From: Escherichia phage vB_EcoM_E9.1
Reading direction: 5' to 3' (one strand)
Length of the DNA: 64,000 nucleotides
Sequence record: PP886230
Shown here: positions 4,545 through 57,558 of the stretch, piece by piece
Position numbering within the stretch: position 1 is the first letter of the stretch
How the letters are laid out: every line of letters starts with the position of its first letter
Program-made: the position numbers and the translations under genes
The notes under the pieces: model-generated
What the model saw: the letters and a program-made list of their open reading frames with translations, nothing else
What the model was told of the DNA's origin: nothing
The model's database searches: none

Positions 4545-5224
4545 TGAAAAAGAAATTAAATGAACAAGGCTTACGTCCGCAAGTTCTCAAAGATTTGATT
4601 CATCCTATCATTAGTGTTGATGAATATACTCCTAAAATTGAAGATAGTAATATTGTTATTATGTTTCAGGTACTTAACAATTTTGATGCAGCATATGATT
4701 TATCTTCTTTTATTGAAAAATCACCTATTGATGTAGCTGATACAGAAGCAGCAGAAACACCAAATTTAGATGGTCGATATCAAGTTTATGTTGAAATGGA
4801 ACGAAATGCCGAATTCCCTGAAAAACTTTTACGTTTAATTAAAACTATTGAAAATATTTGTCCAGACCCAGGTTGGAAAATACAACTATATGGTGTTAAT
4901 GACCCAATCGATGTTGATTTTGAAGAAATACAGCAGAGAATTGATTTGGGTATTCCTAGTTCAATTAGTGAGTTCCTTGATTATGCTGGTGTTTCAGTAA
5001 TCAAAGAAGGAAACATGTTGACATTAAAAACAGCATATGGTAAATTACATTACAGTACTGGAAGCGGTTTTGTTTCAGAAACATATGTGAAAAAGTTATT
5101 AAAGAATGATACACAATTAGACACTTCGCGTCTTAGTTCCATACTAGGGGAAAGCTATACAGTACTACGAAGTGGTGATCAATATGTAATTGGAAGAAAC
5201 GGGAAATATTTGGTGTTGCGATGA
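4544..5224 (+). CDS. hypothetical protein
   Basis: Track ORF; start overlaps upstream stop (coupled). Confidence 0.55.
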   Translation: MKKKLNEQGLRPQVLKDLIHPIISVDEYTPKIEDSNIVIMFQVLNNFDAAYDLSSFIEKSPIDVADTEAAETPNLDGRYQVYVEMERNAEFPEKLLRLIKTIENICPDPGWKIQLYGVNDPIDVDFEEIQQRIDLGIPSSISEFLDYAGVSVIKEGNMLTLKTAYGKLHYSTGSGFVSETYVKKLLKNDTQLDTSRLSSILGESYTVLRSGDQYVIGRNGKYLVLR

Positions 5225-6039
5225 GAATTTTAAATATGCTTAAATCTCTTCACGAAACAACCAAATTACATCAGGATGAAAAGTATCGTCGCAGCCTTAC
5301 TAAAGATTTAGCATGTCGTATGTATATGCGTAGATTTGAAATTTCAAGAATTGGTAAAGGCTGGGATGATGTAAATCGTGAAGACATTGATCCAGATGCA
5401 ATTTTTAAAGCATACATGGCTAGAAAAGTTTTCATAAATGAAAAAACTTTTTATATTGATAGTGATAGAGAATTAGAAAATAAATTTACAAAAGGTTTAT
5501 GGAAGATATGGTGTGTTGAAGTATTCGGTGAAGTATTACCTGAGCCACCTGTTCCAGAAACTTATAAAGATTTAAAAAGTATTTTTGATAATGAACATAT
5601 ACATTCAAATTTCTCATTATATGATACTGTGTCAGAAGCTGTATTTTATGGTGAGTTACATGGTCATAACAAATACTTTGATAGTATGGTTAGTTTTGAT
5701 TTGTTTTGTCACTTGCCTGGTGTATCAAGTTGGACATGTGACCAACACAGAGCAAGTAAGATTGATAAGCGAAAATTCTCGGCCCAAAGATTTATGCAAG
5801 TTGCTATGAGTATGTATAAACTTGATTATCTTGGTTGTCCAGAACCATATAAACATTTTTGGAAAGAAAGAGCACAAAAATGTTTAAACTATTGTATAAT
5901 CCGTTTAATGGACACATACATTCTTAAGTTTAGAAATGCAACTGTATACGACATGCCTGAACCACCAAAGAATGAAAAATATCCACCTGTCAAGACATTT
6001 GTATGGTACAAGGATAAAAGTAACAAAAGGATGCACTAA
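5221..6039 (+). CDS. hypothetical protein
   Basis: Track ORF; ATGA overlap with upstream gene. Confidence 0.55.
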   Translation: MRILNMLKSLHETTKLHQDEKYRRSLTKDLACRMYMRRFEISRIGKGWDDVNREDIDPDAIFKAYMARKVFINEKTFYIDSDRELENKFTKGLWKIWCVEVFGEVLPEPPVPETYKDLKSIFDNEHIHSNFSLYDTVSEAVFYGELHGHNKYFDSMVSFDLFCHLPGVSSWTCDQHRASKIDKRKFSAQRFMQVAMSMYKLDYLGCPEPYKHFWKERAQKCLNYCIIRLMDTYILKFRNATVYDMPEPPKNEKYPPVKTFVWYKDKSNKRMH

Positions 6040-6054
6040 GGTGCGTCCTTTTTT
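6029..6054 (+). terminator. intrinsic terminator overlapping stop codon
   Basis: GGATGCAC-TAAG-GTGCGTCC hairpin followed by TTTTTT. Confidence 0.6.
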
Positions 6055-6065
6055 CTTTTCAGGTG

Positions 6066-6094
6066 TTGACATGTGTAGTCGAAGTATGTACAAT
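6066..6094 (+). promoter_or_regulatory. sigma70-like promoter
   Basis: TTGACA-N17-TACAAT upstream of CDS 6136. Confidence 0.55.
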
Positions 6095-6135
6095 ATCACC
6101 ATAGCGTAAATTTTAATTGATTATGAGGTTTTATA

Positions 6136-7263
6136 ATGAAAGGTAAATATTTTTTCATTGAAAATGGCAAAGAAGTTGAGATTCAAGAATTTAACTATAA
6201 TTATGTACTGAACTCTTTATTGAAACAATATGACCGTTCATCAAACAAAAAATACATTTACAATGTAATTGTACGTCGCACCTATGACTCGCTGGGTAAT
6301 CCGTTATTTGATGTAAAAACTCTGTCATTAGATGAAATCTATTTTGATAATAAACGTCTGAAAGTTCTTGATTTAATGAAGGATAAAATTCATTTTAGTA
6401 ATATTAGAATTGATCCTAACATGCCAGTACCGCCATTAGAGCGTGAATATCGTGAATGGAAAGAAGGTCGTGCCAAACCACGTTTAGACTTGGTACAAAC
6501 ATCACCAGATGTACCTGCACCTATTGTTCTTAAGAAAAAACCTATCAACCCAGACGATAGCAGAATTGATGACATTGAAAGATGGGTTGAATTCCCTAGT
6601 ACTATTGAAAAGAATTCAGTAAAAGTACTAGACTGGTTTGTAAACTTACCAGTTTGTGCACAAGAAATTGGAACTAAGATTCAACAAATTTCAGAACGTC
6701 AATTGGATCTTAACTCAGCATTACAACAGCATAGTGATTATATTAGAATGCTTATGAATAACCTTACTGTTGCGTTGGAGACGTTGTTCCCATTGAAGCC
6801 GACCTTTACACAGAAATTGTTTGGTAAAACTGATATCAAAGTGCAACCATCAGATTTGCCAAAAGTGATGAAAGCACTAAATGAAGCAGTTAAGTATGAC
6901 ACTAATAAGTTTAGTGGTCTTAGTACGATGTTTTCAGAACTTAGAAACGAAGTTAATGAAATCAAAAATGAACTTGAATATGGTAAGTTGGGTTGTGAAT
7001 ACGCACTACGTTGTGTGGATGATGCGTTTGAATATGAATTAACATTAGAACGTATTATGAAAATGGGAATCACCACCTCCATGACTGAAACGAGCATTAT
7101 TGCAACAAGTAAGCAATATCAAGTTGATATGAATCGTATGGTAGATATTCAAACTATTACTATTCCTTTGATTATCAATCGTTTACAATCACAGACAGGT
7201 AAAGCTGTGGATGAGAGTACTGTAGAAATTATTCGTAATCTGGCATATGGTAACAAAGAGTAA
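6136..7263 (+). CDS. hypothetical protein
   Basis: Track ORF 375 aa; RBS GAGG. Confidence 0.6.
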   Translation: MKGKYFFIENGKEVEIQEFNYNYVLNSLLKQYDRSSNKKYIYNVIVRRTYDSLGNPLFDVKTLSLDEIYFDNKRLKVLDLMKDKIHFSNIRIDPNMPVPPLEREYREWKEGRAKPRLDLVQTSPDVPAPIVLKKKPINPDDSRIDDIERWVEFPSTIEKNSVKVLDWFVNLPVCAQEIGTKIQQISERQLDLNSALQQHSDYIRMLMNNLTVALETLFPLKPTFTQKLFGKTDIKVQPSDLPKVMKALNEAVKYDTNKFSGLSTMFSELRNEVNEIKNELEYGKLGCEYALRCVDDAFEYELTLERIMKMGITTSMTETSIIATSKQYQVDMNRMVDIQTITIPLIINRLQSQTGKAVDESTVEIIRNLAYGNKE

Positions 7264-7271
7264 AAAAATAC

Positions 7272-7300
7272 TTGACTATCATACGTGCTGCCCGTATAAT
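7272..7300 (+). promoter_or_regulatory. sigma70-like promoter
   Basis: TTGACT-N17-TATAAT; inverted repeat GTGCTGC...GCAGCAC brackets the -10. Confidence 0.6.
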
Positions 7301-7348
7301 GTTTATCACAGAGCAGCACATCATATTAAATTAAACGAGGAATACTAA

Positions 7349-8485
7349 ATGTCCGAGAAAGAAATCAATCCTAAAAAAGCATCCACCGCAGCTAAATCAG
7401 CAAAACGCACTACTAAAACTGCGTCTAAAGGTCATACAATTGATGCAAGTGATATTTTTAACCAAACTACAAAATCACTACCAGTACTGAAAGATGTTAA
7501 GGGAAATACTATGTCTCTAACAGTTCAAAACATCAATACTGTTGGTACAACTGCTGGTGCTGCTGTTGGGCGTTTGGCTGATGAAATTATGTCTAAAGTT
7601 AATGTAACGGATGACAATACCGAGTTTGGTAAATCAATCACCACAATTCTTACGTTGACTCGTGCAGTTGATATTGACAGTCTTCAAGAAGATAAATCAA
7701 TTGTTGGTCGTATTAAGAAATTCTTTGTTAATGCTCAACAGAAAGTAGGTGATCAGTACAAAAACAGTAAAGAGCAAATTGACGAAATTATGAAAACTCT
7801 TCAAACTGGTATTAATCGCCAGCACGGAGAATGTGAATGGCTTGATAAAGCATATAATGAAAACAAAGAATATTTGTTTGAATTACGTGATACATTAGTT
7901 GGTTTAGAAGAAGTAACTAAAACACAAGATGCATTATTATTAGAAATGCAAGCAGACAAAAATGTAGACTCTTTTGCTATTCAAGAGCAAAAGATGATTT
8001 GTGAAGCACTTTCTAAACAAGAAGATAAGATTCGTCGTCTTATCATGATGTGCGAGCTAAGTGGTCCACGTTTGATGAGTATGAAAAAAGTAAACTTGAA
8101 CACTGTTTCTAAGTTTGAAGATTTAAAATCTGTTGTTATTCCAGCATGGAAGTCTCAATTGGCTGAACAGTTAATTTCCGAGCGTCAACGTAAGGATAAT
8201 GAACTAGGCAATCTAATTGATAATGAGACAAACCGTCTTTTGGAAACTAACTCTAAAATGGTTGCAGCAAATATGTTGGACGCAGCAAAGGCAAACAACC
8301 GTGGTATTGTGGATATTAAAACCTTGCGTAATGTACATAAAACGATGATTGACAGTATTGAAGCAGTTATTGAAGAAGAGAAAAAAGGTAAATTGGAACG
8401 TGAACGTGCTAAACAGGAAATTGCACAACTTTCCTATGAACTGGAAGACACTCTTCGTGAAATTGCCGAAAAAGCTAACAAGTAA
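7349..8485 (+). CDS. hypothetical coiled-coil protein (possibly TelA-like, not verifiable here)
   Basis: Track ORF 378 aa; RBS GAGGAA; family assignment is a guess. Confidence 0.55.
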   Translation: MSEKEINPKKASTAAKSAKRTTKTASKGHTIDASDIFNQTTKSLPVLKDVKGNTMSLTVQNINTVGTTAGAAVGRLADEIMSKVNVTDDNTEFGKSITTILTLTRAVDIDSLQEDKSIVGRIKKFFVNAQQKVGDQYKNSKEQIDEIMKTLQTGINRQHGECEWLDKAYNENKEYLFELRDTLVGLEEVTKTQDALLLEMQADKNVDSFAIQEQKMICEALSKQEDKIRRLIMMCELSGPRLMSMKKVNLNTVSKFEDLKSVVIPAWKSQLAEQLISERQRKDNELGNLIDNETNRLLETNSKMVAANMLDAAKANNRGIVDIKTLRNVHKTMIDSIEAVIEEEKKGKLERERAKQEIAQLSYELEDTLREIAEKANK

Positions 8486-8488
8486 TAG

Positions 8489-8517
8489 TTGACATATGAG
8501 TGCGTTTTTAATATAAT
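8489..8517 (+). promoter_or_regulatory. sigma70-like promoter
   Basis: TTGACA-N17-TATAAT upstream of CDS 8565. Confidence 0.55.
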
Positions 8518-8540
8518 CTTATTGAAAACGCACTCTTTTT
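8498..8540 (+). terminator. hairpin + T-run nested in the promoter
   Basis: GAGTGCGTTTT...AAAACGCACTC 11-bp stem, loop carries the -10, followed by TTTTT. Confidence 0.5.
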
Positions 8541-8564
8541 AATGTACAGATAAGGAACTAACTT

Positions 8565-9254
8565 ATGAAACGTCGTCATATTAGTGTTGATATTGAAGCT
8601 CTTGGAACACCTGAACTTTCCGGTTATGATATTATTATCCCAAATTACGCAGCAGTAGTAGTTCCAAGTAAACCTGAAAATGACATTCGTCAGTTCTTAT
8701 ATATTAAATTACCATACCAGGATCAAGTTGCTGCTGGTTTAAAATCAGACGCAGGTGCAATGGATTTTTGGATGAATACATGTCAGAAAGAATACCCTAA
8801 TGCATATTCTGAAGTTGCCAGTACTATGAAACTCAAAGCACCTGAACTGTATGGACCGAATGGTCAATCACGACGATTTTTTGCATACAGTAGTATTGTT
8901 GATTTCTGGAAAGAATTACGTTACAATGATTATGGTGAAGAAGTTCCTCATTCAGTCTGGGGCAACGGATGTAACTTCGATTGTAGTATTTTACAAGCAA
9001 ACCATTTAAAACTAATGAACGCTGGTGAGTTGTGGAAGTATGATGCACCTGAAAATGCACGCACATTGAAACGTTTATTGAATGAAGAAGCTCGTATTGA
9101 AATGGATGAAATCGTTTCGGTACAGTTGGATAAATTTATCACATATGCAAATACGTGTGGGATTAATGGGTTGGAGTTACATCACCCACTGTTTGATGCA
9201 GCACGTGAAGCAATCCAGATTTCATTCTGTCTAAACAAGCTTAAAATGGATTAA
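8565..9254 (+). CDS. DEDDh 3'-5' exonuclease (DnaQ-like; DexA-like)
   Basis: Exo motifs: SVDIEALGT (D-x-E), WGNGCNFDCSIL, HHPLFDAAREA (H-x4-D). Confidence 0.65.
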   Translation: MKRRHISVDIEALGTPELSGYDIIIPNYAAVVVPSKPENDIRQFLYIKLPYQDQVAAGLKSDAGAMDFWMNTCQKEYPNAYSEVASTMKLKAPELYGPNGQSRRFFAYSSIVDFWKELRYNDYGEEVPHSVWGNGCNFDCSILQANHLKLMNAGELWKYDAPENARTLKRLLNEEARIEMDEIVSVQLDKFITYANTCGINGLELHHPLFDAAREAIQISFCLNKLKMD

Positions 9255-9257
9255 TAC

Positions 9258-10352
9258 ATGAATTTCATTATTCTGTTAATACCTGCTCTTATCGTTGTAT
9301 TCGTTATGAAATACATGTACGATAAGCATATCAGTACTAAAGAACTATTGATTCATATTGGTTGTTGTCTGGTTGGTGCGGCTCTTGTTCTTGGTATTTC
9401 ATACGCAATCAACTATAGCCAGCTTTATGATGTTGAGATTCTGAATGGTCAAGTAACTTCAAAATACAGCCACAAAGAATATTGCACACAATCTAGTTCA
9501 TGTAAGCACTATACATGGCATGAGAAGTGCCATACGCGATATGATAGTAAAGGTAAATCACATCGTGAGTGTGAATCATATAAGGTTTTTGATTACTCAT
9601 ATGAAGTTGATTGGTATGTGAAAAGTACAGTAGGTGAGTTTGAGATTGAACGTGTGAACCGTCAAGGTACAATGACACCACCACGTTGGCAGCAAGTTAT
9701 GATTGGTGACTATGCCGCCGCAGAGAGTTCATATATCAACTATCTATTTGCTGATAAGAACTCATTGTTTAGTCCTGAAGAACTACACAACATGTATGAT
9801 GAAAAGTATCTTAGTACTATTCCAGAATACCCAAGTGTAGTTGATTATTACAAAACACATCACGTAATTAACACTACAAATTACAACGTTGATGGTTACG
9901 ATGAATACCTTCGTAATGAGCTAAAAACGATGGGTGCACGAAAGCAGGTAAACATCCAAGTACTAGTTTATGATTACAAAGATGTGGATTTTGTTGATGC
10001 TACCCTTGCATCGTGGCGTGGTGGTAAGAAGAATGATGTTATTATGTTCTTTGGTATTGACAATGATGGTAACGTTGTCAAATTTTACAGTACATCATTT
10101 GCACAAGGAATGAAGAATGAAGAGTTACATGCAAAGATGCGTATTGATGCATTAAATGAAAAATTAACTCTTGACTTACTAGTTAAAGAAGTACATAATA
10201 TTGACACACAGTTTGAGAGACTCTCTAATAAAGAGTTTGAGTACTTGTCAGTAAAAATGGAACCTAGAAAAGATGTTCTTATCGGTGCTTCCATTGTTTT
10301 GTTGATTCTGTCTATTTTCATTGGCCTTTATATGAGGGATAACGATTTATGA
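9258..10352 (+). CDS. membrane protein, Cys-rich ectodomain
   Basis: Track ORF; hydrophobic N- and C-terminal segments. Confidence 0.55.
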   Translation: MNFIILLIPALIVVFVMKYMYDKHISTKELLIHIGCCLVGAALVLGISYAINYSQLYDVEILNGQVTSKYSHKEYCTQSSSCKHYTWHEKCHTRYDSKGKSHRECESYKVFDYSYEVDWYVKSTVGEFEIERVNRQGTMTPPRWQQVMIGDYAAAESSYINYLFADKNSLFSPEELHNMYDEKYLSTIPEYPSVVDYYKTHHVINTTNYNVDGYDEYLRNELKTMGARKQVNIQVLVYDYKDVDFVDATLASWRGGKKNDVIMFFGIDNDGNVVKFYSTSFAQGMKNEELHAKMRIDALNEKLTLDLLVKEVHNIDTQFERLSNKEFEYLSVKMEPRKDVLIGASIVLLILSIFIGLYMRDNDL

Positions 10353-10903
10353 ATGGTAAACTCCTTGCGTTAATTGGTATTTTGGTAGTTATTGTACTAA
10401 TGGTGTTTGGTTCTATTAGTATGTATGTTGGTGCACATGATCGTGCAGTTGAGTTTGAAGGAAACATTAAAAAGTACTATGATGCATCTGAAAGTCAACT
10501 TAGCAATTATACTCTTACTATTCAAGATAAGGTTCAAGTAGCAGATAAGTACAAAAATGCGTTGAAAGAAACGATTGAGTCATACTTTAAAGGGCGTGAA
10601 GGTGTTGACCAGAAGTTTGTAATGTCACAGATTCAACAACAGGTTCCAAATCTTGATCCTAAAATTTATCAGGAATTGATGGTGACAATTGAAGCAGGAC
10701 GTACAAAGTTCAACAATCTTCAGAAAATGAAAATTGACCAGTGTACTGATTATGCTAAGTTCCGCAAAGGCTTCTGGAATTCCAAAATTCTTGATTCGAA
10801 TACGTTTCCAAGTGAAAATATTGAACACCTTTGTACAGTAGTATCTGATACACGTACCAAGAAAGCAATGGATACTGGTATTCAAGAATCAATTAAACTA
10901 TAA
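10349..10903 (+). CDS. membrane-anchored protein (LemA-like architecture, tentative)
   Basis: N-terminal TM helix then soluble domain; ATGA overlap with upstream gene. Confidence 0.5.
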   Translation: MNGKLLALIGILVVIVLMVFGSISMYVGAHDRAVEFEGNIKKYYDASESQLSNYTLTIQDKVQVADKYKNALKETIESYFKGREGVDQKFVMSQIQQQVPNLDPKIYQELMVTIEAGRTKFNNLQKMKIDQCTDYAKFRKGFWNSKILDSNTFPSENIEHLCTVVSDTRTKKAMDTGIQESIKL

Positions 10904-10912
10904 TTAAATGTT

Positions 10913-10937
10913 GGGAGTACTTTGTACTCCCCTTTTC
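10913..10937 (+). terminator. intrinsic terminator
   Basis: GGGAGTAC-TTT-GTACTCCC hairpin followed by CTTTTC. Confidence 0.7.
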
Positions 10938-10950
10938 TATGGGGTGTACT

Positions 10951-11538
10951 ATGTTTTTAAAAAATACTTATGAATTAATTAAAATGCTTCAAAATATGAA
11001 TTCCGGTGGCTTGTTTCCCTATTACTCTGAGGATGAAACTCATCGTTTAGTCCTTAAATTGGATGAAACTGGACGTATTATATCACTAAGAACAACAGTC
11101 CCCAGTGTAGAACCAGTAATTACCAAATCAACTCAAAATTCAGGAACTGCTGTTAAAACACCACAAACATACAACTCTAATTACCAACAACCACAAATGT
11201 ACACGATTAGCACTCCACCTATTAAACGAGTTGCTTGTATTGTGAATATAAAAGTATCTAAGGACTATCGCGACTTAATATCAGTTGAATGGTCAGAACT
11301 AACATCATCATTAGCAACAAATGGATTTGTAGTAACAAATACAGGTCTAGCACAAAATGTGAAAGAAGGACAACAGATCATGAGTGCATTGTATCTTAGT
11401 AATGGTTGTGTTATCATCAATGGTAAGTTGTATAGCGATGCCGACCCCACTGCATTCACTGAAGATTTGATTGGTGATAAAGAATACAGCATTCTTGAAA
11501 TTATGAATTTGAAAAAGGTATATGAAAACCATGACTAG
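10951..11538 (+). CDS. hypothetical protein
   Basis: Track ORF 10939..11538; start moved to ATG 10951 because 10939 abuts the terminator. Confidence 0.5.
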   Translation: MFLKNTYELIKMLQNMNSGGLFPYYSEDETHRLVLKLDETGRIISLRTTVPSVEPVITKSTQNSGTAVKTPQTYNSNYQQPQMYTISTPPIKRVACIVNIKVSKDYRDLISVEWSELTSSLATNGFVVTNTGLAQNVKEGQQIMSALYLSNGCVIINGKLYSDADPTAFTEDLIGDKEYSILEIMNLKKVYENHD

Positions 11539-12103
11539 ATTTCATCAAGATGATTTGCCATTTATACAAGAACTAGAAGAACTGGTGATAAGTATTATGG
11601 ATGAAATTAGTACTTGGGATATAACAGTTTTTCGAAATGTATATGATAAAGTGGTGAATTTTAAAAATGTTAATATTGAAGTAAAACATAATAATTTTTA
11701 CTTAACAAAACAATTCATTCTAACTCGACCAGGATCAAAGCCAGTTAAACGTAATTTATCATTCGGACACCTGATTGGTGCAGAAAATGTACATGATGAA
11801 TGGGTTGATTCAATCTATTCGTATACAAAAGAACTTATTCCTGATATTGAGAAAAAATATTATCTTAGTATCACATTAGATGAACAAGGAAAACTAAATG
11901 CGTATTCCATAAATTCATCAGCACACGTTCCATTACATTCAACGTCAATTGGTGATAAACAATTACTAATCGATTCATCAACATGGCACAATAGGGAAAG
12001 TTTCTCCGCTGAAACTTTTCAGTACTCGGTATCTGAACCAAAGTCTCCATTTGATTTTGTGTTTGTTAATAACATCCTTTTACGTTTTGGTGTAGGAGTC
12101 TAA
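11522..12103 (+). CDS. hypothetical protein
   Basis: Track ORF; weak ...AETFQYSVSE... resemblance to the EE-x-FFQ family. Confidence 0.5.
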   Translation: MKTMTRFHQDDLPFIQELEELVISIMDEISTWDITVFRNVYDKVVNFKNVNIEVKHNNFYLTKQFILTRPGSKPVKRNLSFGHLIGAENVHDEWVDSIYSYTKELIPDIEKKYYLSITLDEQGKLNAYSINSSAHVPLHSTSIGDKQLLIDSSTWHNRESFSAETFQYSVSEPKSPFDFVFVNNILLRFGVGV

Positions 12104-12105
12104 TT

Positions 12106-12459
12106 ATGCTAATTTATTTGAGTGTTCTTGTTATTTCATTACTGGTATCATTAGCAGTACTGAAAGCTGTTGCCATCGGTCGTAGTAAAATTGACAGTAC
12201 TGAAACGAGTTCCGTTCTAGATTTGATTATGGATCATCCTAAAGTCTGTGGTATTATTGTATTGTTTGTTATTCTGATTAATACGTATATTGTCAGGGAT
12301 CATTTATATAATATGTATGATTGTAGTGTTAGATCTATATCACAAGGTGTTGAAACTGACTATAGCTGGTACTATGAGAAATGTAGATTTAAAAATCAGC
12401 ATGGTATTTGGGTTGATTTTGACAAACTACGTGGAACTCCTTCAGGAGAAGAAGAATAA
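12106..12459 (+). CDS. membrane protein
   Basis: Track ORF; two hydrophobic segments. Confidence 0.5.
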   Translation: MLIYLSVLVISLLVSLAVLKAVAIGRSKIDSTETSSVLDLIMDHPKVCGIIVLFVILINTYIVRDHLYNMYDCSVRSISQGVETDYSWYYEKCRFKNQHGIWVDFDKLRGTPSGEEE

Positions 12460-12461
12460 TT

Positions 12462-12953
12462 ATGTTTGAGTTCCCAGAAGAGTCATTTGACTTTATTGAC
12501 CCTACTGATGATGGATACCGACACATTAACATTTATAGTAAAGCTAGAACTAAGTTAGGTAGAGATCTATCTAACTTTTCTTCACATAGCTTCACACTTG
12601 AACCATATGGTTGGTTCCCTTCAGTTGAAACATTTTACTTTTGGTTTTTAACTGGGCAAAAACATGATGACCTTAGAAAAGTATCTGGTGCAGCAGCAAA
12701 AGCAGCCGCTAACAAATATATGCATGATCGAATTGAAATGACGGATGATTGTATTTCTATTATTCAAGATGCTATTTGTGCTAAGATAATTCAAAATCCA
12801 GAGTTAGCCGAAAGATTAAGAAAAAGCAAGTTACCTTTTTACCATTACTATGTATATGGTGGTAAAGTTGTAGATGTATCCGACGAACATGATTGGTTTG
12901 TTAAAACATTCGAATATATAAGAACGGTGTTAAAGGAAAACTATAATGGGTAA
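12462..12953 (+). CDS. hypothetical protein, possible NADAR-like domain
   Basis: LSNFSSHSF...FPSVETFYFW resembles NADAR/YbiA core (FSNF...PTVEHYYQA); tentative. Confidence 0.45.
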   Translation: MFEFPEESFDFIDPTDDGYRHINIYSKARTKLGRDLSNFSSHSFTLEPYGWFPSVETFYFWFLTGQKHDDLRKVSGAAAKAAANKYMHDRIEMTDDCISIIQDAICAKIIQNPELAERLRKSKLPFYHYYVYGGKVVDVSDEHDWFVKTFEYIRTVLKENYNG

Positions 12954-13224
12954 ATGTTGGGTATGCTTCAAGGTGTTTGATGAAGAATATGAAATAATAT
13001 TAGATGTATTGCCACAGCAGTACATGGTGTGTAATGAAAAATACAAATTGGACACCTACCCGACCCCCAAGTACATGGGAATATGTCCTTTGTGTGATGC
13101 AAATGGCGTGTCCAATAGTGAGATTTCATTCACTAACCAAGCCACAACTAACTGTGTATCTGGGTATATAAGAGAGAATCGAGAATATTTTATTAGGAGA
13201 TTATATGAACGACAAAATCTTTGA
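12946..13224 (+). CDS. small Cys-rich (zinc-ribbon-like) protein
   Basis: CWVC...CPLCD cysteine pairs. Confidence 0.45.
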   Translation: MGKCWVCFKVFDEEYEIILDVLPQQYMVCNEKYKLDTYPTPKYMGICPLCDANGVSNSEISFTNQATTNCVSGYIRENREYFIRRLYERQNL

Positions 13225-13435
13225 TACATATGACATCGATACTTTACTAACACCATCTGATAACAGTACTGTTAAAATGGACATGTACTGGATTGTCGTT
13301 GATAAAAAAGTATTTAGACATAAAATTACTAAAGTTTGGCAATGTAATAAAAACAAATCTATTGTTGAAGGATTGGCACAATGCATTCCTAATGCAGAGG
13401 TTTTATTTTTACCATATGCATATACAAAGGAATAA
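13205..13435 (+). CDS. hypothetical protein
   Basis: Track ORF. Confidence 0.4.
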   Translation: MNDKIFDTYDIDTLLTPSDNSTVKMDMYWIVVDKKVFRHKITKVWQCNKNKSIVEGLAQCIPNAEVLFLPYAYTKE

Positions 13436-13436
13436 A

Positions 13437-13598
13437 ATGAAAAAAACTTGGAAAATATTCACAATACCTGCTATAATGTTGTTATTGGCACTTTTCACAC
13501 CGCAGAGTCATGTATTGTCTCTTAACATTGTGGAAATAATTCTTCTTGTAATTCACTGTGTCGTGTGTTATAATTATGTAAAAGGTGATAAAGAATGA
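13437..13598 (+). CDS. small membrane protein
   Basis: Internal ATG of track ORF 13293..13598 behind RBS AAGGAA; hydrophobic. Confidence 0.4.
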   Translation: MKKTWKIFTIPAIMLLLALFTPQSHVLSLNIVEIILLVIHCVVCYNYVKGDKE

Positions 13599-14017
13599 AG
13601 TTCTTTAAAATTCGAATTGGTGTAAGTTCTGGTTTATCTCATTGGGTATTTTATGATTTACCTGATAGTTATACTATTGATGATGTAATTGATTTATATA
13701 CCGAAGATCAACAATGGGTGTTAGATACCGAAACACATAGAATTGATTGTCAAGAGATTAGTGAAGAAGATTACAAACACGGAAAGCAAGCCATGAAGTA
13801 TTTTGAAACAAATATCAAAATGCTGACTGAAAACGTATTTCCAGTAAAAGAATGGGCGATTTTACTTGCTAATCCTAAAAAACCTGTTAGAATTGGTTAT
13901 CCAAATTTTCATATGGTGTATCGTATGAATGATAAGCGAGAGCTTAACTATCAATACGATTACGATTCATCTAAGTTTGGAGTTCTTAAACAATTTTTAA
14001 AGGCTTATCCAGTATGA
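13595..14017 (+). CDS. hypothetical protein
   Basis: Track ORF; ATGA overlap. Confidence 0.5.
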   Translation: MKFFKIRIGVSSGLSHWVFYDLPDSYTIDDVIDLYTEDQQWVLDTETHRIDCQEISEEDYKHGKQAMKYFETNIKMLTENVFPVKEWAILLANPKKPVRIGYPNFHMVYRMNDKRELNYQYDYDSSKFGVLKQFLKAYPV

Positions 14018-14349
14018 GTGAAGATAGTAAAGAGTATATTTTACGTTGTTCTTGTGGCGATAAAATGGAGCATTGCGTTCACATTGCACAATTTGACTTG
14101 ACAGAGGAATATGGAGATGATAAACTTGGTCAATGTCTGATAAGTATGCGTTTAAATCCTTTTTTAAAATGGTATAACCGTGTATGGGTTGCAGTAAAGT
14201 ATGTTTTTGGTGTAAACGACTATCAATATGTAGAAGCAACAATTGATGTTGACATTCTAAAAGAAGTTGTGTTACAATTAGAAGATACTAGAACTGATGA
14301 GGTTAAAAAAGAACAAAGAGAAAAACGTACTGATGTGAAGGTTTTATGA
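14014..14349 (+). CDS. hypothetical protein (Cys cluster)
   Basis: Track ORF; ATGA overlap. Confidence 0.5.
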   Translation: MSEDSKEYILRCSCGDKMEHCVHIAQFDLTEEYGDDKLGQCLISMRLNPFLKWYNRVWVAVKYVFGVNDYQYVEATIDVDILKEVVLQLEDTRTDEVKKEQREKRTDVKVL

Positions 14350-14540
14350 GTACTGAACTTTATGAAAAAAAGTACTGTACAAATTGCTCAACTGAGTATA
14401 CAATACAAGGTATGTTGATTTGTACAATATGTCAGTCAAAGAAATCAGCAACTTTCATCGTTGATGATAGATTTGGTGATTTGAAACAGTTTAAAGCAAA
14501 CCGCAATCTTCGTATTTTTAGCAATCTAAATAAGGAATAA
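14346..14540 (+). CDS. small zinc-ribbon-like protein
   Basis: CTNC...CTIC cysteine pairs. Confidence 0.45.
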   Translation: MSTELYEKKYCTNCSTEYTIQGMLICTICQSKKSATFIVDDRFGDLKQFKANRNLRIFSNLNKE

Positions 14541-14543
14541 TAT

Positions 14544-14972
14544 ATGAATATCGAACAAACTATCCGTGAACATTCTTTCTTCGCTCCAGAAACTGGTCGT
14601 GTTATTGAGAGCGTCAAAATCGAAGAACTAATGGTCAATGTTAAATACAAAGAACCAAATGATGAGATTAGCAGTACTTTTTGTGCTCTACGTGCACCAT
14701 TCCGTAATGAAAAAGCTAAGAAACCAGCATATGTTCTTGCCATTGCACTGGGTTGTGTTGTAAAACTTGCAGTTGATGAAAATCTTCTGAATATTAAAGT
14801 TGCACCAAGCAATGACGATGAAAACATTGATTTGAACTTTGATGGTTCTCTTGATGAAGATGTATTTTTCCAACAGTCACTTGTTTACGACTTCCGTACA
14901 GTGACACATTCTCACATCAAGTTCATTAATGAAATGGTTGAGATTGTTGCTGAATACGAAGAATCTCTCTAA
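14544..14972 (+). CDS. EE-x-FFQ family small protein
   Basis: C-terminal ...DEDVFFQQSLVYDF...; RBS AAGGAA. Confidence 0.6.
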   Translation: MNIEQTIREHSFFAPETGRVIESVKIEELMVNVKYKEPNDEISSTFCALRAPFRNEKAKKPAYVLAIALGCVVKLAVDENLLNIKVAPSNDDENIDLNFDGSLDEDVFFQQSLVYDFRTVTHSHIKFINEMVEIVAEYEESL

Positions 14973-14981
14973 GTAAATACA

Positions 14982-15006
14982 AAAGCCTCCATTATGGAGG
15001 CTTTTA
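14982..15006 (+). terminator. intrinsic terminator
   Basis: GCCTCCA-TTA-TGGAGGC hairpin followed by TTTT. Confidence 0.65.
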
Positions 15007-15025
15007 TCACATAAGGAAATGAAAT

Positions 15026-15577
15026 ATGATAGACCAAATTAAAATCCTTACAAAGCAAATCACTGATTTTCTTTCTGATAAAGATGGATTTAATACAGAA
15101 GTAAAAATGCACGGTGTTAGTGTTGATGTAATTGCACCAAATGGTAATGTAACAAGTTACGACATGTATGAATTACTTCTTTATACTCTAGCAGTACGTA
15201 AACTAGGTAGTGATATTGAACTCAATATCAATACTGATGAAAGTGGGAATAAAATTTTTGCAATCAACACCAGTGCTAAATTCGATATCAGTACTGAAAT
15301 TAAAAAAATAAATGAAAGTTTTATTGGCTTTAAGCATGAATCAATTCAAAGTGTTTTTATTGGAAAGCAAACTTCTAATAGTGAATGCCCATATTGTGTA
15401 ATGACTTTATATAAAGATGGAAACTGGATGCGTCAAGATTTAGTATTTGCTGAACTTCTGTATGCATTTACACATGAACTTAAAATCGAATTGGACGATA
15501 GTGTTTATTGCTTTAAGAAAATTCGAAATATAACTAAAGATATACAAACCCAACTTAAAGAATTAAATGATAAATAA
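15026..15577 (+). CDS. hypothetical protein
   Basis: Track ORF; RBS AAGGAAA. Confidence 0.55.
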   Translation: MIDQIKILTKQITDFLSDKDGFNTEVKMHGVSVDVIAPNGNVTSYDMYELLLYTLAVRKLGSDIELNINTDESGNKIFAINTSAKFDISTEIKKINESFIGFKHESIQSVFIGKQTSNSECPYCVMTLYKDGNWMRQDLVFAELLYAFTHELKIELDDSVYCFKKIRNITKDIQTQLKELNDK

Positions 15578-30079: not shown

Positions 30080-30208
<129 letters not shown>

Positions 30209-30212
30209 AAAT

Positions 30213-30314
<102 letters not shown>

Positions 30315-45351: not shown

Positions 45352-46317
45352 GTGAAAAAGCTTGATTTAAATACAATTGCCGAAGAAGTTCTGGATGAAT
45401 GTTTTGCTAATGAAGAAGTCAACACACTAGAAGCCTTAGATTTCGTTGAAGATAAAGATGATAATGAAGGTAAAGTACAAAGCAGTTTCAAATATAATAT
45501 TACACTTAAGCGACCACCAAATGTTTCCAATGAAGATCTAATTCGTGATATTCAAGCTGGTATCAATGTAAAGAAAAACACTGAACTGTTAGTTCGTTAC
45601 AATTATGGACTGATTATTGATGTAGCAAGTAAATGTACTTGTTATATCCCATTTGAAGATAAGATTTCATATGGTGTTGAGGGGTTCATGAGAGCACTAA
45701 AAACCTTTGATCTTAATAAGAATGTTAAGTTCATTACCTATGCTTCTTCTAGTATTTACATGACAGTCTATAACGAAAGTTCTGACGCTAACTATATGGT
45801 ACACTTCCCACGTTATATGAGTGTTCATAAGATCAAAGTAAAAAGATTCTGCCAGGAATATATGCGTAAACATGGTGTTCGCCCAACACCTGAAATAATC
45901 TCAGAGGGTACTGGGATTGAGATTCAGCATGTTAATAATTGTTTGTTATTTCAAAGCGAATACACTTCGCTGGATGCACCATTAGACGGTGTTACAGATG
46001 GTACATTAGGTGACATTATTCATTCACCTGCTTCTGATTTTAACCTCAATGTTGATAGTATCCGTGCACCTTTGCGTTATGCTATCAATGAACTGACCAA
46101 CGAATTGAGTACTAAAGAACGTGAGATTATCCAGCGTGTTCATGGTCTAGGTGAATATGAACCTGAAACGCTTCGTGAGATTGCTGATAATGGTTTTGTT
46201 GATGATAATGGAAAATATGTTAAATCCCGTTCATCAATACATCGAAAGTACAGTGAAGCTATGCAAAAGCTTAAGAAGTTAGTACTTGCAAAAGGGTACG
46301 AATACGAAGATTTCTAA
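45352..46317 (+). CDS. sigma-70-family RNA polymerase sigma factor
   Basis: Region 2-like ELLVRYNYGLIIDVASKC...VEGFMRALKTFD...FITYASSSIY...HFPRYM; region 4-like KEREIIQRVHGLGEYEPETLREIADN; GTG start 6 nt after AGGAG. Confidence 0.65.
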   Translation: MKKLDLNTIAEEVLDECFANEEVNTLEALDFVEDKDDNEGKVQSSFKYNITLKRPPNVSNEDLIRDIQAGINVKKNTELLVRYNYGLIIDVASKCTCYIPFEDKISYGVEGFMRALKTFDLNKNVKFITYASSSIYMTVYNESSDANYMVHFPRYMSVHKIKVKRFCQEYMRKHGVRPTPEIISEGTGIEIQHVNNCLLFQSEYTSLDAPLDGVTDGTLGDIIHSPASDFNLNVDSIRAPLRYAINELTNELSTKEREIIQRVHGLGEYEPETLREIADNGFVDDNGKYVKSRSSIHRKYSEAMQKLKKLVLAKGYEYEDF

Positions 46318-46324
46318 AGAACAA

Positions 46325-46350
46325 GGGTTGGCTTATGCCAACCTTTTTTT
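46325..46350 (+). terminator. intrinsic terminator
   Basis: AAGGGTTGGC-TTAT-GCCAACCTT hairpin followed by TTTTTTT. Confidence 0.7.
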
Positions 46351-46351
46351 A

Positions 46352-46380
46352 TGGGATGAAGTAAAAGTTTGTGATATAAT
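46352..46380 (+). promoter_or_regulatory. promoter, extended -10 with TGGGAT -35-like element
   Basis: TGGGAT-N17-TGTGATATAAT; same architecture as the tRNA-Ser promoter at 30080. Confidence 0.45.
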
Positions 46381-46874
46381 TATCTTGTACAATTCTGTTG
46401 GCATGATATTCATGTACCTGATCCACTCGAAAACGTAGAGGGCAGTTGAGCAGTCCGACAGTGCGAACAGCAAAAGAAACCCGTTAGATGTGGGCATAGT
46501 TTGAACCCCTCACGGCAATGCGGCTGTATAAAGAACCACGTTAGGATAGCTGGTGGTTCCTTGATAGACATATAAGGATAACACCTTACGAATTATCTAA
46601 GGGAGAGTTATCGAATTTTGTACAGGAAAGTTGCGTCCAAAATTTGAGTACTCACATTAAGTATTTGATTGCATAGATACTTAATGAAGATACACTATGT
46701 TTAAAAGTGTAGACCGTCATATGAAACTGAAGTAGAGAGAAACAGGATGACCCGCTTTCGCACTCTTTATGAGTAATCTTCAATGCAATAGCTCTGATAC
46801 CATCAGCGTCAAATTTCCCTCCTTGTGGGGGGAAGAAAAATCCCTTCCTCAAATCCCGTCAATATTAAAAGTCC
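46381..46874 (+). ncRNA. candidate large structured ncRNA (identity unknown)
   Basis: ~490 nt with stops in all three + frames, visibly GC-richer than flanks, local hairpins (e.g. GAACCAC...GTGGTTC), bounded by promoters at 46352 and 46875. Confidence 0.3.
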
Positions 46875-46903
46875 TTGACAGTTATTAATCATTCGCGTAG
46901 AAT
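46875..46903 (+). promoter_or_regulatory. sigma70-like promoter
   Basis: TTGACA-N17-TAGAAT upstream of CDS 46968. Confidence 0.5.
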
Positions 46904-46967
46904 ACGTAGTATTAGAAGCGAACAGACATCTCGAAGAGATGGATGATTAACCATTAAGGAATATCAA

Positions 46968-47177
46968 ATGAATTCAGTAATCTTTTTAGTAGTCGCTTTC
47001 TCTGTTAATTCCGGTGTACAAATAACCCCAATGAATTCCATGAATCAATGCATAGCAGTACGTGATAGTACATACGAACAAGTAAACAAAGATATTTGGA
47101 TTACAGTTAGTAAAGAACAAATGTGGTGTTACAATAGTAATACTAACACAAAGCTTATTGTAGGACAAACTCAATGA
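46968..47177 (+). CDS. small protein with N-terminal hydrophobic segment
   Basis: Track ORF; RBS AAGGAA. Confidence 0.4.
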   Translation: MNSVIFLVVAFSVNSGVQITPMNSMNQCIAVRDSTYEQVNKDIWITVSKEQMWCYNSNTNTKLIVGQTQ

Positions 47178-47405: not shown

Positions 47406-48194
47406 ATGAGCACTATAGATGAACTGATTCGACGGAATTCAAAATATTACCAACCATCAGAAATTGTAGGTAACATTACCAAATCAGAGTTTGGTCCAAA
47501 TACTCGAAAACTCATTCATGTAATGTCACGTGATGGCTTTAAATGTGATTGTTGCGGTGAATCTAATGTAGTATTCACTTTACACAAGCACAGTACTAAA
47601 GATCGTTATAAATTCAGACCTTATGTACTTAAAGGGAAACGCCTTGTACGCATGACGTTAGACCATAATGTACTGGACTGTCTTCAGGGCGGTAATGATA
47701 AAGAGAACATGACTGCACTGTGTGAAGATTGTAACGCATTACGCCAGCATAAGTTTGCTGAATACAGTGAGTTTAAACACTGGTATCATAACGCGGATCG
47801 TTCAATCGAGCCTGACGTTAACTACTGCTTCATTGAGTACATTAAGAATGCCAAAGATACATACATTCTTAAATCAATGTCACCTATTACCGTGTTTCCT
47901 GAGAACCTATTCACTACATTAAAGAATAGTTTTATTGTGGGTGATATTGATGCATTCAAGTATTTTGACAAAGGTGCAAAACATTTTGAAATTCAATGTC
48001 TTAGTACTGCACTATGTGAACTCATTAAAATTTACATAAAAGAGTATTTGGGTATTGACAATGTACGTGTACCAGAGTATACTTTTTCTATTGAATTCGA
48101 TTGTGAATCAATCAAAGAGTTTGGAATTCTTTTCAATAAACAAATAGAACTTGCAATTCAAAACGAAATCAAGTACTATACTACTAACATTTAA
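47406..48194 (+). CDS. HNH endonuclease (homing-endonuclease-like)
   Basis: FKCDCCGE...TLDHNVLDCLQGGNDKENMTALCEDCNALRQH fits the HNH Cys/His/Asn pattern. Confidence 0.7.
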   Translation: MSTIDELIRRNSKYYQPSEIVGNITKSEFGPNTRKLIHVMSRDGFKCDCCGESNVVFTLHKHSTKDRYKFRPYVLKGKRLVRMTLDHNVLDCLQGGNDKENMTALCEDCNALRQHKFAEYSEFKHWYHNADRSIEPDVNYCFIEYIKNAKDTYILKSMSPITVFPENLFTTLKNSFIVGDIDAFKYFDKGAKHFEIQCLSTALCELIKIYIKEYLGIDNVRVPEYTFSIEFDCESIKEFGILFNKQIELAIQNEIKYYTTNI

Positions 48195-57528: not shown

Positions 57529-57558
57529 TTGGGACAACCATTCTTATTATGATATAAT
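57529..57558 (+). promoter_or_regulatory. promoter, extended -10 with TTGGGA -35-like element
   Basis: TTGGGAC-N17/18-TATGATATAAT; ~80-nt leader with hairpin TGTCATT...AATGACA. Confidence 0.45.

Follow-up and report, generated by a model that had tools for sequence, protein, structure and literature searches.

Comparative evidence for a new family of large structured RNAs in Rak2-like jumbo phages

Introduction

Large "ornate" RNAs such as GOLLD and ROOL (RF01998 and RF03087) occur in bacteria and phages, and cryo-electron microscopy has shown them as multimers (PMC12286853). Transcriptome sequencing (RNA-seq) of the jumbo phage PA5oct, a distant relative of the Rak2-like clade, defined four "putative lncRNAs" (long noncoding RNAs; ncRNA001 to ncRNA004) of 236 to 619 nucleotides (nt), which are free of open reading frames (ORFs) and have no known promoters; two of these noncoding RNAs (ncRNAs) are highly expressed, at 2 to 5% of phage reads (PMC7318152). 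Here, we analyze a locus in a 64,000-nt stretch of Escherichia phage vB_EcoM_E9.1 (sequence record PP886230; the whole stretch is called the window, and coordinates refer to it). An earlier note, made from the letters of the window alone, had proposed a large structured ncRNA with its own promoter at this locus. Comparative covariation and the promoter class strongly support that proposal, and we consider it close to certain that positions 46387 to 46861 of the + strand are an ncRNA gene of about 475 nt, made up of a leader and a 445-nt core.

Noncoding transcripts are also found at the replication origins of phage T4. T4 has at least five origins, and oriF and oriG combine a phage-specific promoter with a noncoding transcript. 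The origins are about 100 bp long and share no motif, R-loop formation needs no specific sequence, and a switch in gene orientation and skew has been noted as a hallmark of oriE, oriF, and oriG (PMC3016281). In the jumbo phage CBB, a "divergent RpoD-like" promoter class with the -35 sequence TGAAACG has been described, and most of its examples precede ORFs in the region of the DNA synthesis genes (PMC5259590).

Results

The stretch had been described in the earlier note as ORF-free, and the ORF list contains no credible ORF, only ORFs of 25 to 66 amino acids (aa) scattered over both strands. In each of 62 nonredundant members of the family described below, every + frame has at least four stops (median, 7), and the strand and position of the longest ORF vary between copies. 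The presence of stops in all frames, the indel lengths (not multiples of three), and the absence of any conserved ORF together indicate that the sequence is noncoding. The note had reasoned that a protein-coding gene at this place in related phages would make the stretch a pseudogene. No protein-coding homologue was found at the same position in any relative, and careful annotations leave the locus empty; in the records of phages G17 and 121Q, the interval between the sigma factor gene terminator and the next small gene is without any feature. The UE-S1 record labels the 5′ part of the stretch as a repeat_region. In the records of JP4, BAU.Micro_ELP-22, SHEFM2K, the Salmonella SD-phages, and WPEC3/5, three to five overlapping "hypothetical proteins" are annotated over the RNA gene; these are almost certainly false gene calls.

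The region from 46300 to 46970 is 100% identical to that of Escherichia phage JP4 and 98.7 to 99.7% identical to those of other Asteriusvirus jumbo phages (genomes of about 350 kb), including 121Q, PBECO4, G17, and phAPEC6. Across Asteriusvirus, the ORF-free stretch retains 87 to 100% identity. A BLAST search with the RNA core against 50,697 phage records matched 70 of them, all jumbo phages of the Rak2-like clade, with three to five matching places per record. Identity was 66 to 75% in other genera (Serratia phage BF, Erwinia phage pEa_SNUABM, Pectobacterium phage CBB, Cronobacter phage GAP32, Yersinia phage fHe-Yen9-04, Salmonella phage Munch, and Klebsiella and Xanthomonas XbC2 jumbo phages), where the matching places are mostly unannotated; this is unusually high for noncoding DNA. 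Copies were also collected by pattern scans of IMG/VR and JGI/ENA metagenomes followed by nhmmer, which gave 140 matches, 102 of them full length (380 to 530 nt; 79 unique). The full-length matches at these 102 loci have sharp common ends, CCUGAUCC on the 5′ side and CGUCA on the 3′ side, and in the window these ends delimit a conserved core at 46417 to 46861 (+). A plasmid search returned no match to the element.

Every genome carries paralogues, four in Asteriusvirus and five in the sister genera Mimasvirus and Eneladusvirus. None of the other copies falls within the 64-kb window; they lie elsewhere in the genome. The unannotated genome of phage ECO103 4-12-1, assembled here, has four paralogues on one strand, with near-identical blocks between variable hairpins and with indels that are not multiples of three. 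In a neighbor-joining tree, the copies cluster by position across genera, which implies that the paralogues are old; we refer to the positional groups as 1 to 5 (the window copy is a member of group 5, and group 4 is missing from 121Q). Conservation across genera, together with the paralogues in each genome, indicates that the stretch is more than a chance feature. The window RNA thus belongs to a previously undescribed family of structured RNAs of 435 to 540 nt in Rak2-like jumbo phages.

In our judgment, this RNA family is new, being accommodated by no known family or mechanism. We searched Rfam 15, which includes group I and II introns, RNase P, transfer-messenger RNA (tmRNA), 6S, T-box, GOLLD, ROOL, OLE, raiA, HEARO, and the small ribozymes. 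At the gathering score, the whole window yielded only six tRNAs. At an E value of ≤10, the interval from 46200 to 47100 gave only terminator-like or chance matches of ≤20 bits, and nothing was found within the elements of nine other copies. ARAGORN reported no tRNA or tmRNA genes between 45900 and 47300. These searches agree with the earlier note, in which inspection by eye had matched no intron core and no tmRNA, RNase P, or 6S signature, and no description of this RNA was found in the searchable literature.

Several candidate identities were rejected. By eye, a hammerhead reading (CAGAUGAG-stem-CGAA) fails because A replaces U at position 4, the essential A6 is U in the window, and the GAA is not conserved. 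RNase P-like (ACAGA..ACCCG) and group I R/S resemblances were seen by eye only and had no Infernal support. PA5oct ncRNA001 and ncRNA002 were ruled out as homologues by nhmmer --max, as neither matched the family profile (the stretch searched excluded ncRNA003 and ncRNA004). The PA5oct ncRNAs resemble the window RNA in being ORF-free and of unknown function, but neither paralogy nor conserved structure has been described for them, unlike for the window family.

The comparative alignment that the earlier note had proposed as a check bears out the structured RNA. We aligned 43 nonredundant copies with a median identity of 54% (alignment A1). RNAalifold predicted 57 pairs on A1, 34 of them with compensatory double changes. 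A curated structure of 90 pairs, derived partly from the window sequence, was then scored on the 43 sequences: 87.4% of cells were paired, compared with 35 to 44% when the partners were slid, and changes on both sides of a pair occurred at 61 pairs, compared with 20 to 27 in the slid controls. The covariation score was 0.423 (controls, ≤0.096) and was reached by none of 500 shuffles. Related sequences may beat every shuffle without any structure, a caveat countered here by the slid controls and by the number of distinct pair types. The 43 copies support 14 helices and three pseudoknots.

The pseudoknots came from a mutual information (MI) analysis of 62 sequences, which recovered the RNAalifold helices and three further long-range pairings, PKa, PKb, and PKc (paired fractions of 100%, 99.6%, and 100%, respectively). 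At PKb, at least eight different complementary sequence pairs occupy identical positions, among them AUUGCAU/AUGCAAU, AUUGUAU/AUACAAU, GUCGAAU/AUUCGAC, UUCAUGU/ACAUGAA, and CUGAAUU/AAUUCAG. The evidence for PKb is this positional covariation; a per-sequence shuffle test gave no information, as A+U-rich RNA commonly forms 7-bp duplexes. G-U pairs outnumber A-C combinations by 241 to 89 (about 2.7 to 1), which points to the + strand as the strand that folds. As judged from the alignments, the core is made of two domains, P1 to P6 with PKa and P7 to P14 with PKb and PKc. About 150 nucleotides are near invariant in A1, mostly unpaired and located in loops and junctions.

The pairing data also bear on whether the element acts as RNA at all. 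It could instead be a DNA-level repeat, such as a protein-binding array or a single-stranded DNA site for a primosome or single-strand origin, or it could be a decayed coding gene. G-T wobbles are also tolerated in DNA hairpins, the P14 region is near palindromic, and the co-orientation and regular spacing of the copies (see below) would fit a DNA-level signal. However, the compensatory changes keep the pairing and not the sequence, at 61 pairs and in three pseudoknots, and a promoter precedes nearly every copy at a fixed distance and orientation. The coding alternative is further opposed by the stops, the indel lengths, and the lack of coding homologues reported above. We therefore consider an element that does not work as RNA extremely improbable.

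The predicted 5′ domain (all features are on the + strand) begins with hairpin P1 (46423 to 46442), which has the conserved loop GAAAAYGUA and compensatory changes in all five pairs. Hairpin P2 (46450 to 46464) is preceded by a near-invariant G(A/U)UGAG, of which UGAG is invariant; P2 is 100% paired, and its middle pair is UA, AU, or CG. Helix P3 (46467 to 46471 with 46523 to 46527) is likewise 100% paired, with three covarying pairs, and encloses both P4 (46481 to 46484 with 46512 to 46515), which is invariant or changes by wobble only, and a variable hairpin with the loop CAUAGUUUG. PKa pairs 46518 to 46520 (AUG) with 46569 to 46571 (CAU) and so bridges the P3 interior and the GAUAGAC junction; it shows a G-C/A-U switch (33:10) and an MI of 0.60. 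RNAalifold had paired GAC (46567 to 46569) with the 3′-terminal GUC, but the covariation of C/U at 46569 with G/A at 46520 led us to adopt PKa in its place. The hairpin GAACCAC/GUGGUUC singled out in the earlier note is real: it is P5 (46533 to 46559), the most strongly covarying stem, with covariation at all seven pairs and up to four pair types. P6 (UAAGG/CCUUA; 46573 to 46588) has three covarying pairs and is followed by the near-invariant CUAAGGGAG (46597 to 46605), within which AAGGGA is invariant in A1.

Downstream of P6, P6b (46605 to 46653; MI pairs 46606/46652 and 46607/46651) closes an optional hairpin module, which in the window has the stem AAUUUUG/CAAAAUU and the loop UACAGGAAAGUUGCGUC. 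In other copies in A1, the optional module is present, absent, or located at a second site inside P12. The hairpin itself, about 35 nt (window 46612 to 46646; A1 columns 245 to 297 and 422 to 457), has the stem AAAUUUUG/CAAAAUUU and the loop UACAAUAUAGAUCCGUC. Being present, absent, or duplicated at either site (P6b or P12), it resembles a portable RNA building block.

The predicted 3′ domain starts with P7 (46655 to 46686), a 10-bp hairpin with the loop UUGAUUGCAUAG and compensatory changes in 10 of 10 pairs. PKb is formed between the P7 loop (46668 to 46674; AUUGCAU) and 46783 to 46789 (AUGCAAU), with covariation at five of its seven pairs. Hairpin P8 (46691 to 46711) has five covarying pairs and contains the top MI pair of the family, 46692/46710. 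PKc joins 46716 to 46720 (GUCAU), within the GACCGU block, to 46747 to 46751 (AUGAC), within the P11 loop, with three covarying pairs and an MI of 1.08. P10 spans 46728 to 46782 (46728 to 46732 with 46778 to 46782) and is 100% paired, with four covarying pairs; inside it lie P11 (46735 to 46759; GAGAG...CUUUC with an invariant ACCCGC), also 100% paired with four covarying pairs, and P12 (46762 to 46774), with four covarying pairs. The P13 region (46794 to 46810; A1 columns 488 to 545) ends in the conserved AUCAGCGUCA and is paired only tentatively; the P13 register drawn from the window sequence was rejected, being unsupported in A1 (27% paired).

In general character, the window RNA resembles the "ornate" large RNAs of unknown function, such as GOLLD and ROOL, which are the nearest kind. 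Like them, the window RNA is several hundred nucleotides long (>400 nt), with many covarying helices and pseudoknots and densely conserved unpaired nucleotides, and it is carried by phages and has no known function. The loop-to-strand pairing of PKb could in principle be intermolecular. Unlike GOLLD and ROOL, whose models it matches in neither sequence nor structure, the family has lytic jumbo phages of Enterobacterales as its hosts, the tRNA gene nearest to the window copy is about 12 kb away, and each genome has four to five diverged, evenly spaced paralogues, each with its own promoter.

The RNA gene appears to be a transcription unit of its own. The earlier note had placed the stretch behind the terminator of a sigma factor gene, and a terminator scan locates this intrinsic terminator at 46323 to 46346 (+; a 10-bp stem followed by a T-run), isolating the RNA gene from upstream transcription. 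A dedicated promoter follows at 46352 to 46380 (+), TGGGAT-N17-TGATATAAT, with TGGGAT at 46352 to 46357, a TG extension at 46372 and 46373, and TATAAT at 46375 to 46380. As the note had observed, the same type of promoter lies upstream of tRNA-Ser, at 30080 to 30108, where it heads the tRNA cluster. In total, the + strand of the window has four instances of this class (1202 to 1230, 30080 to 30108, 46352 to 46380, and 57530 to 57558), and an Asteriusvirus genome has about 19 on the coding strand and 1 on the other. The pattern TG(A/G)(A/G)AC(A/G)-N~16-TGnTATAAT is found upstream of nearly every copy of the family, 36 to 87 nt before the core, and matches the "divergent RpoD-like" class of CBB, from which we infer the timing class (PMC5259590). 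Copy 3 is an independent + strand unit amid minus-strand genes.

Transcription is predicted from the -10 position to start at about 46387, which gives a 5′ leader from 46387 to 46416 (+) that contains a conserved motif and a small hairpin at 46402 to 46414. The leader motif ACAAYUCUGAWUGR and the hairpin recur after the predicted start in most copies. Seven group 1 copies also have a strong hairpin and U-run that lie before the leader motif and no more than about 40 nt from the predicted start, an apparent terminator or attenuator at the extreme 5′ end of the transcript.

On the 3′ side, the core ends in a module (46815 to 46861, +) consisting of the C-rich/G6 hairpin P14 (46815 to 46834) and a tail that ends in CAAAUCCCGUCA; the GGG core of the G-run and the CGUCA are invariant in A1. 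The only changes in P14 are from C-G to U-G, consistent with a + strand RNA, and its register is partly shifted in A1. In groups 2 to 4, a terminator-like hairpin and U-run stand directly after CGUCAG and before the 3′ module, whereas such a terminator is missing from group 1 and from group 5, to which the window copy belongs. Beyond the terminator, groups 2 to 4 have the C-rich/G6 hairpin module and the tail AAAUCUCGUCA, and in these copies the 3′ module may be part of the same RNA. A direct repeat, AUC(A/U)(G/U)CGUCA, was also seen at 46801 to 46811 and 46851 to 46861 (A1 columns 494 to 504 and 583 to 592), with the optional terminator hairpin and the G6 hairpin between the two repeats. A single upstream strand (GACGA) could serve as the pairing partner of either repeat, possibly reflecting alternative structures or processing sites.

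Weaker structured sequence continues up to about 46950. The spacer to the next gene (46862 to 46967, +) belongs to the RNA only tentatively. It contains a near-consensus sigma-70-type promoter, TTGACA-17-TAGAAT (46875 to 46903; 11 of 12 matches), and folds with a z score of -3.75, with hairpins at 46892 to 46922 and 46927 to 46941. Weaker conservation continues beyond CGUCA, and many copies, also in bacteria, have downstream hairpins with an AACGWAGUGA loop; this part may represent another conserved module or another small RNA.

The order of promoter, structured RNA, terminator (groups 2 to 4), and co-directional genes at most loci would suit a cis-regulatory leader, either a riboswitch or attenuator or a processive antiterminator like HK022 put or EAR heading a long operon. 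The copies are also spaced like heads of transcription domains, and three + strand ORFs follow the element in Escherichia coli (see below). A riboswitch would be expected in the 5′ untranslated region of a consistent gene or pathway, but the genes downstream of the element are unrelated between loci and differ at every one of them. The promoter-to-operon position of a put- or EAR-like element fails for copy 3, which is followed by convergent minus-strand genes, and the window copy has no terminator and is followed immediately by a strong, separate promoter. Known antitermination RNAs are also much smaller than 445 nt with three pseudoknots. A leader function is very improbable in our view.

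At the genome scale, copies lie at about 30, 95, 175, 260, and 335 kb in CBB, GAP32, Serratia phage BF, and fHe-Yen9-04; three metagenomic genomes have five copies each, more or less evenly spaced, and 121Q has four. Within each genome, all copies are on one strand and 44 to 112 kb apart. The smallest gap is 12.5 to 17% of the genome (P = 0.0004 to 0.05 per genome for random points on a circle), values that come from syntenic genomes and are essentially one observation. In CBB, each copy occupies an unannotated gap of 650 to 790 bp, and the neighbors are unrelated between loci. Copy 3, flanked by a minus-strand endonuclease VII gene and a structural gene, is near the place at which gene orientation reverses and the GC skew changes sign, and it is the only copy at such a switch.

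This layout makes an origin-associated RNA the strongest rival to a trans-acting one. The structured transcript would act in cis at a replication origin, as an R-loop primer or licensing RNA, by analogy with T4 oriF and oriG or ColE1 RNA II, and the G6 run and tail would be near the RNA-DNA transition. ColE1 RNA II is a transcript of about 500 nt with its own promoter, its folding matters, and it has G-rich and C-rich segments near its 3′ part, as does the family RNA. Unlike the family, RNA II is present in one copy per replicon and lacks a comparable pseudoknot set, and the two are not homologous; no antisense partner equivalent to RNA I was seen, although no search aimed at one was made. In favor of an origin are the four to five copies per genome of about 350 kb, on one strand and at the above-mentioned spacing, and the conservation of their positions across genera. 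Copy 3 keeps the common orientation against its neighbors at a switch like the T4 hallmark, and T4 itself provides the precedent of at least five origins with promoter-driven R-loops at oriF and oriG (PMC3016281). The phages share with T4 a T4-like replisome, several dispersed sites, and a noncoding transcript from a phage-specific promoter (with a sigma-70-like -10), and promoters of the TGAAACG type mostly precede ORFs of the DNA synthesis region in CBB (PMC5259590). Bacterial islands with recombinases (see below) keep the element and the phage promoter in cis, an arrangement that would permit island amplification upon infection.

Several observations speak against an origin. T4 origins are motif free, and some 150 conserved nucleotides in a 445-nt pseudoknotted structure far exceed what priming needs. 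No clear A+T-rich unwinding element is seen: the A+T content of the 100 nt after the element is on average 69%, compared with 66.6% for the window (0.69 versus 0.67 for the genome). A terminator lies inside the element in three of five groups, copy 3 alone is at a skew and orientation switch, and the spacing values reduce to the single observation noted above. We regard the origin-associated RNA as unlikely.

The element is not confined to phages. Four bacterial chromosomes, those of E. coli, two Serratia strains, and an Enterobacteriaceae metagenome-assembled genome (MAG), carry it within integrated islands; three of these copies are full length with a phage-type promoter, and the flanking genes differ between islands. 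Among 5,426 complete E. coli genomes, 2 matched. E. coli LR-29-1 has a full-length copy (nhmmer E value, 6e-114) with the promoter TGGGAT...TGATATAAT, in an island between ffs and ybaA whose other contents include integrase remnants, IS3, a resolvase, and a candidate defense system, a trio of DuOB, DUF488, and mSLOG-DUF4326 (PADLOC PDC-M45). In the chromosome segment examined, the island extends from 4956 to 15300 and the RNA gene from 9001 to 9537; this 537-nt element is the only phage match, with the best match (80%) to copy 3 of Eneladusvirus phages. Downstream of this RNA gene, a stretch of about 720 nt is unannotated and folds well. The other bacterial copies were found with a pattern of the 5′ domain in a scan of one genome per species: a full-length one in Serratia sp. 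2723, directly downstream of a large serine recombinase gene and with a TGAAACG... promoter; a 5′-truncated one in Serratia sp. L9, beside and overlapping a shorter recombinase-like ORF; and that of the MAG. No conserved protein neighbor was found among the bacterial islands. These copies indicate that the element can be transferred as a discrete unit and has entered bacteria on several occasions.

Such transfers raise the possibility of a mobile or selfish element, in the form of an ORF-less ribozyme or intron-like RNA or a guide scaffold like HEARO/omega-RNA with a nuclease or recombinase encoded elsewhere. The element is multicopy with sharp, identical boundaries, lies beside serine recombinase genes or integrase remnants in unrelated bacterial islands, and has homing endonuclease genes near some copies. 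It shares with the HEARO/IscB omega-RNA (RF02033) a large, structured, multicopy nature and movement between genomes as a discrete unit. However, orthologous positions across genera imply no recent movement within phages, and neither flanking exons nor target duplications nor terminal inverted repeats are present. Unlike group I or II introns, the copies interrupt no gene; they are all intergenic, and their flanks are unrelated. The Rfam intron, HEARO, and ribozyme models had no match. No TnpB, IscB, or reverse transcriptase gene is adjacent in the contexts examined (for TnpB and IscB, annotated or Pfam-scanned contexts, others being judged from ORF lists only). The flanks carry conserved motifs and no hypervariable, guide-like sequence. 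We find a mobile element very improbable.

The homing endonuclease gene near the window copy likewise counts against a mobile element. This 262-aa HNH endonuclease gene (47406 to 48194), downstream of the RNA gene, is missing at the same locus in ECO103 4-12-1, a 99%-identical phage in which the small genes run straight on. Its absence there marks it as a free-standing homing endonuclease insertion unrelated to the RNA, and an association between the two was rejected on this ground. The note had also called the stretch GC richer than its surroundings, which is the case to a moderate extent (46300 to 46600, GC of 0.40 to 0.455; most flanking windows, 0.30 to 0.34); the 3′ half of the sigma factor gene, at about 0.39, makes the contrast only moderate. 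Elsewhere in the window, the tRNA call at 30213 to 30291 scored 29.3 bits against a gathering score of 29 and may be an unusual or degenerate tRNA.

Discussion

It is very nearly assured that the locus encodes a structured ncRNA from a new family, and the best explanation as a whole is probably an ncRNA gene of about 475 nt that works as a folded RNA. For any specific function, our confidence is less than even. In the proposed mechanism, transcription of the sigma factor gene would stop at 46323 to 46346 and RNA polymerase would restart at the TGGGAT-N17-TGATATAAT promoter. The product, the leader plus the 445-nt core, would act as a folded RNA and not as a coding sequence or a plain DNA repeat. 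Supply would come from four to five loci and be timed by the promoter class that precedes DNA synthesis genes in CBB. The conserved unpaired blocks, G(A/U)UGAG, AAACCCGUUAG, CACGGCAAUGCGGC, GAUAGACAUAUAAGG, CUAAGGGAG, GACCGU, AGAGAGAAACAG, and ACCCGC, may be its working surface.

With regard to the mode of action, we tentatively favor, at not quite even chances, an RNA that is stable and acts in trans, as the scaffold or a subunit of a phage ribonucleoprotein (RNP) or by associating with itself as GOLLD and ROOL do. This preference stems from the amount of conserved tertiary structure, as in ribozymes and RNP RNAs, of which the density of invariant unpaired nucleotides is typical. A phage RNA with some likeness is the phi29 packaging RNA (pRNA), which is also phage encoded and has two complementary segments that covary between relatives, as those of PKb do here. 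The pRNA, however, is about 174 nt long, is encoded in a single copy beside packaging genes, and has no homology to the family, and the jumbo phages studied here use a T4-type terminase, unlike phi29.

Several points weigh against the explanation preferred here. The co-orientation and more-even-than-chance spacing of the copies are not explained by an RNA acting purely in trans, nor is the positional conservation of diverged paralogues across genera. The analysis found neither a protein partner nor a target, and each locus has different neighboring genes. Of the ncRNAs that RNA-seq defined in the related phage PA5oct, ncRNA001 and ncRNA002 were searched and are not homologous, and no RNA-seq, 5′/3′ end, or abundance data for phages of the Rak2-like clade were found in the literature. 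In groups 2 to 4, the terminator-like hairpin precedes the conserved 3′ module. The single-sequence fold is only mildly better than those of shuffles (z score of -1.98, compared with -1.51 on the opposite strand), although real RNAs commonly fold only mildly better than shuffles.

Few large RNAs are known to have comparable conserved tertiary structure (rRNA, RNase P, introns, tmRNA, OLE, GOLLD, ROOL, and raiA), and each of them has taught new biochemistry. The present family occurs in culturable E. coli phages (121Q, PBECO4, G17, phAPEC6, and JP4) and is thus directly tractable. The spurious "hypothetical proteins" annotated over the RNA loci in several GenBank records need correction.

The positions of the four to five paralogues, evenly spaced and in one orientation, point to a possible connection between RNA fold and organization at the genome scale, and the copies in bacterial islands suggest a role in phage-host conflict. 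A more speculative idea, to which we assign a low probability, is that the elements are RNA-defined sites of replication or chromosome organization that prime or license in cis and that bacteria captured copies to sense infection or to be amplified. If so, a T4-like jumbo phage would mark four to five evenly spaced, co-oriented points of its 350-kb genome with promoter-driven, pseudoknotted RNAs, and single copies with the phage promoter would have been captured in integrative defense islands, where they would either sense infection or be amplified by the replication machinery of the invader.

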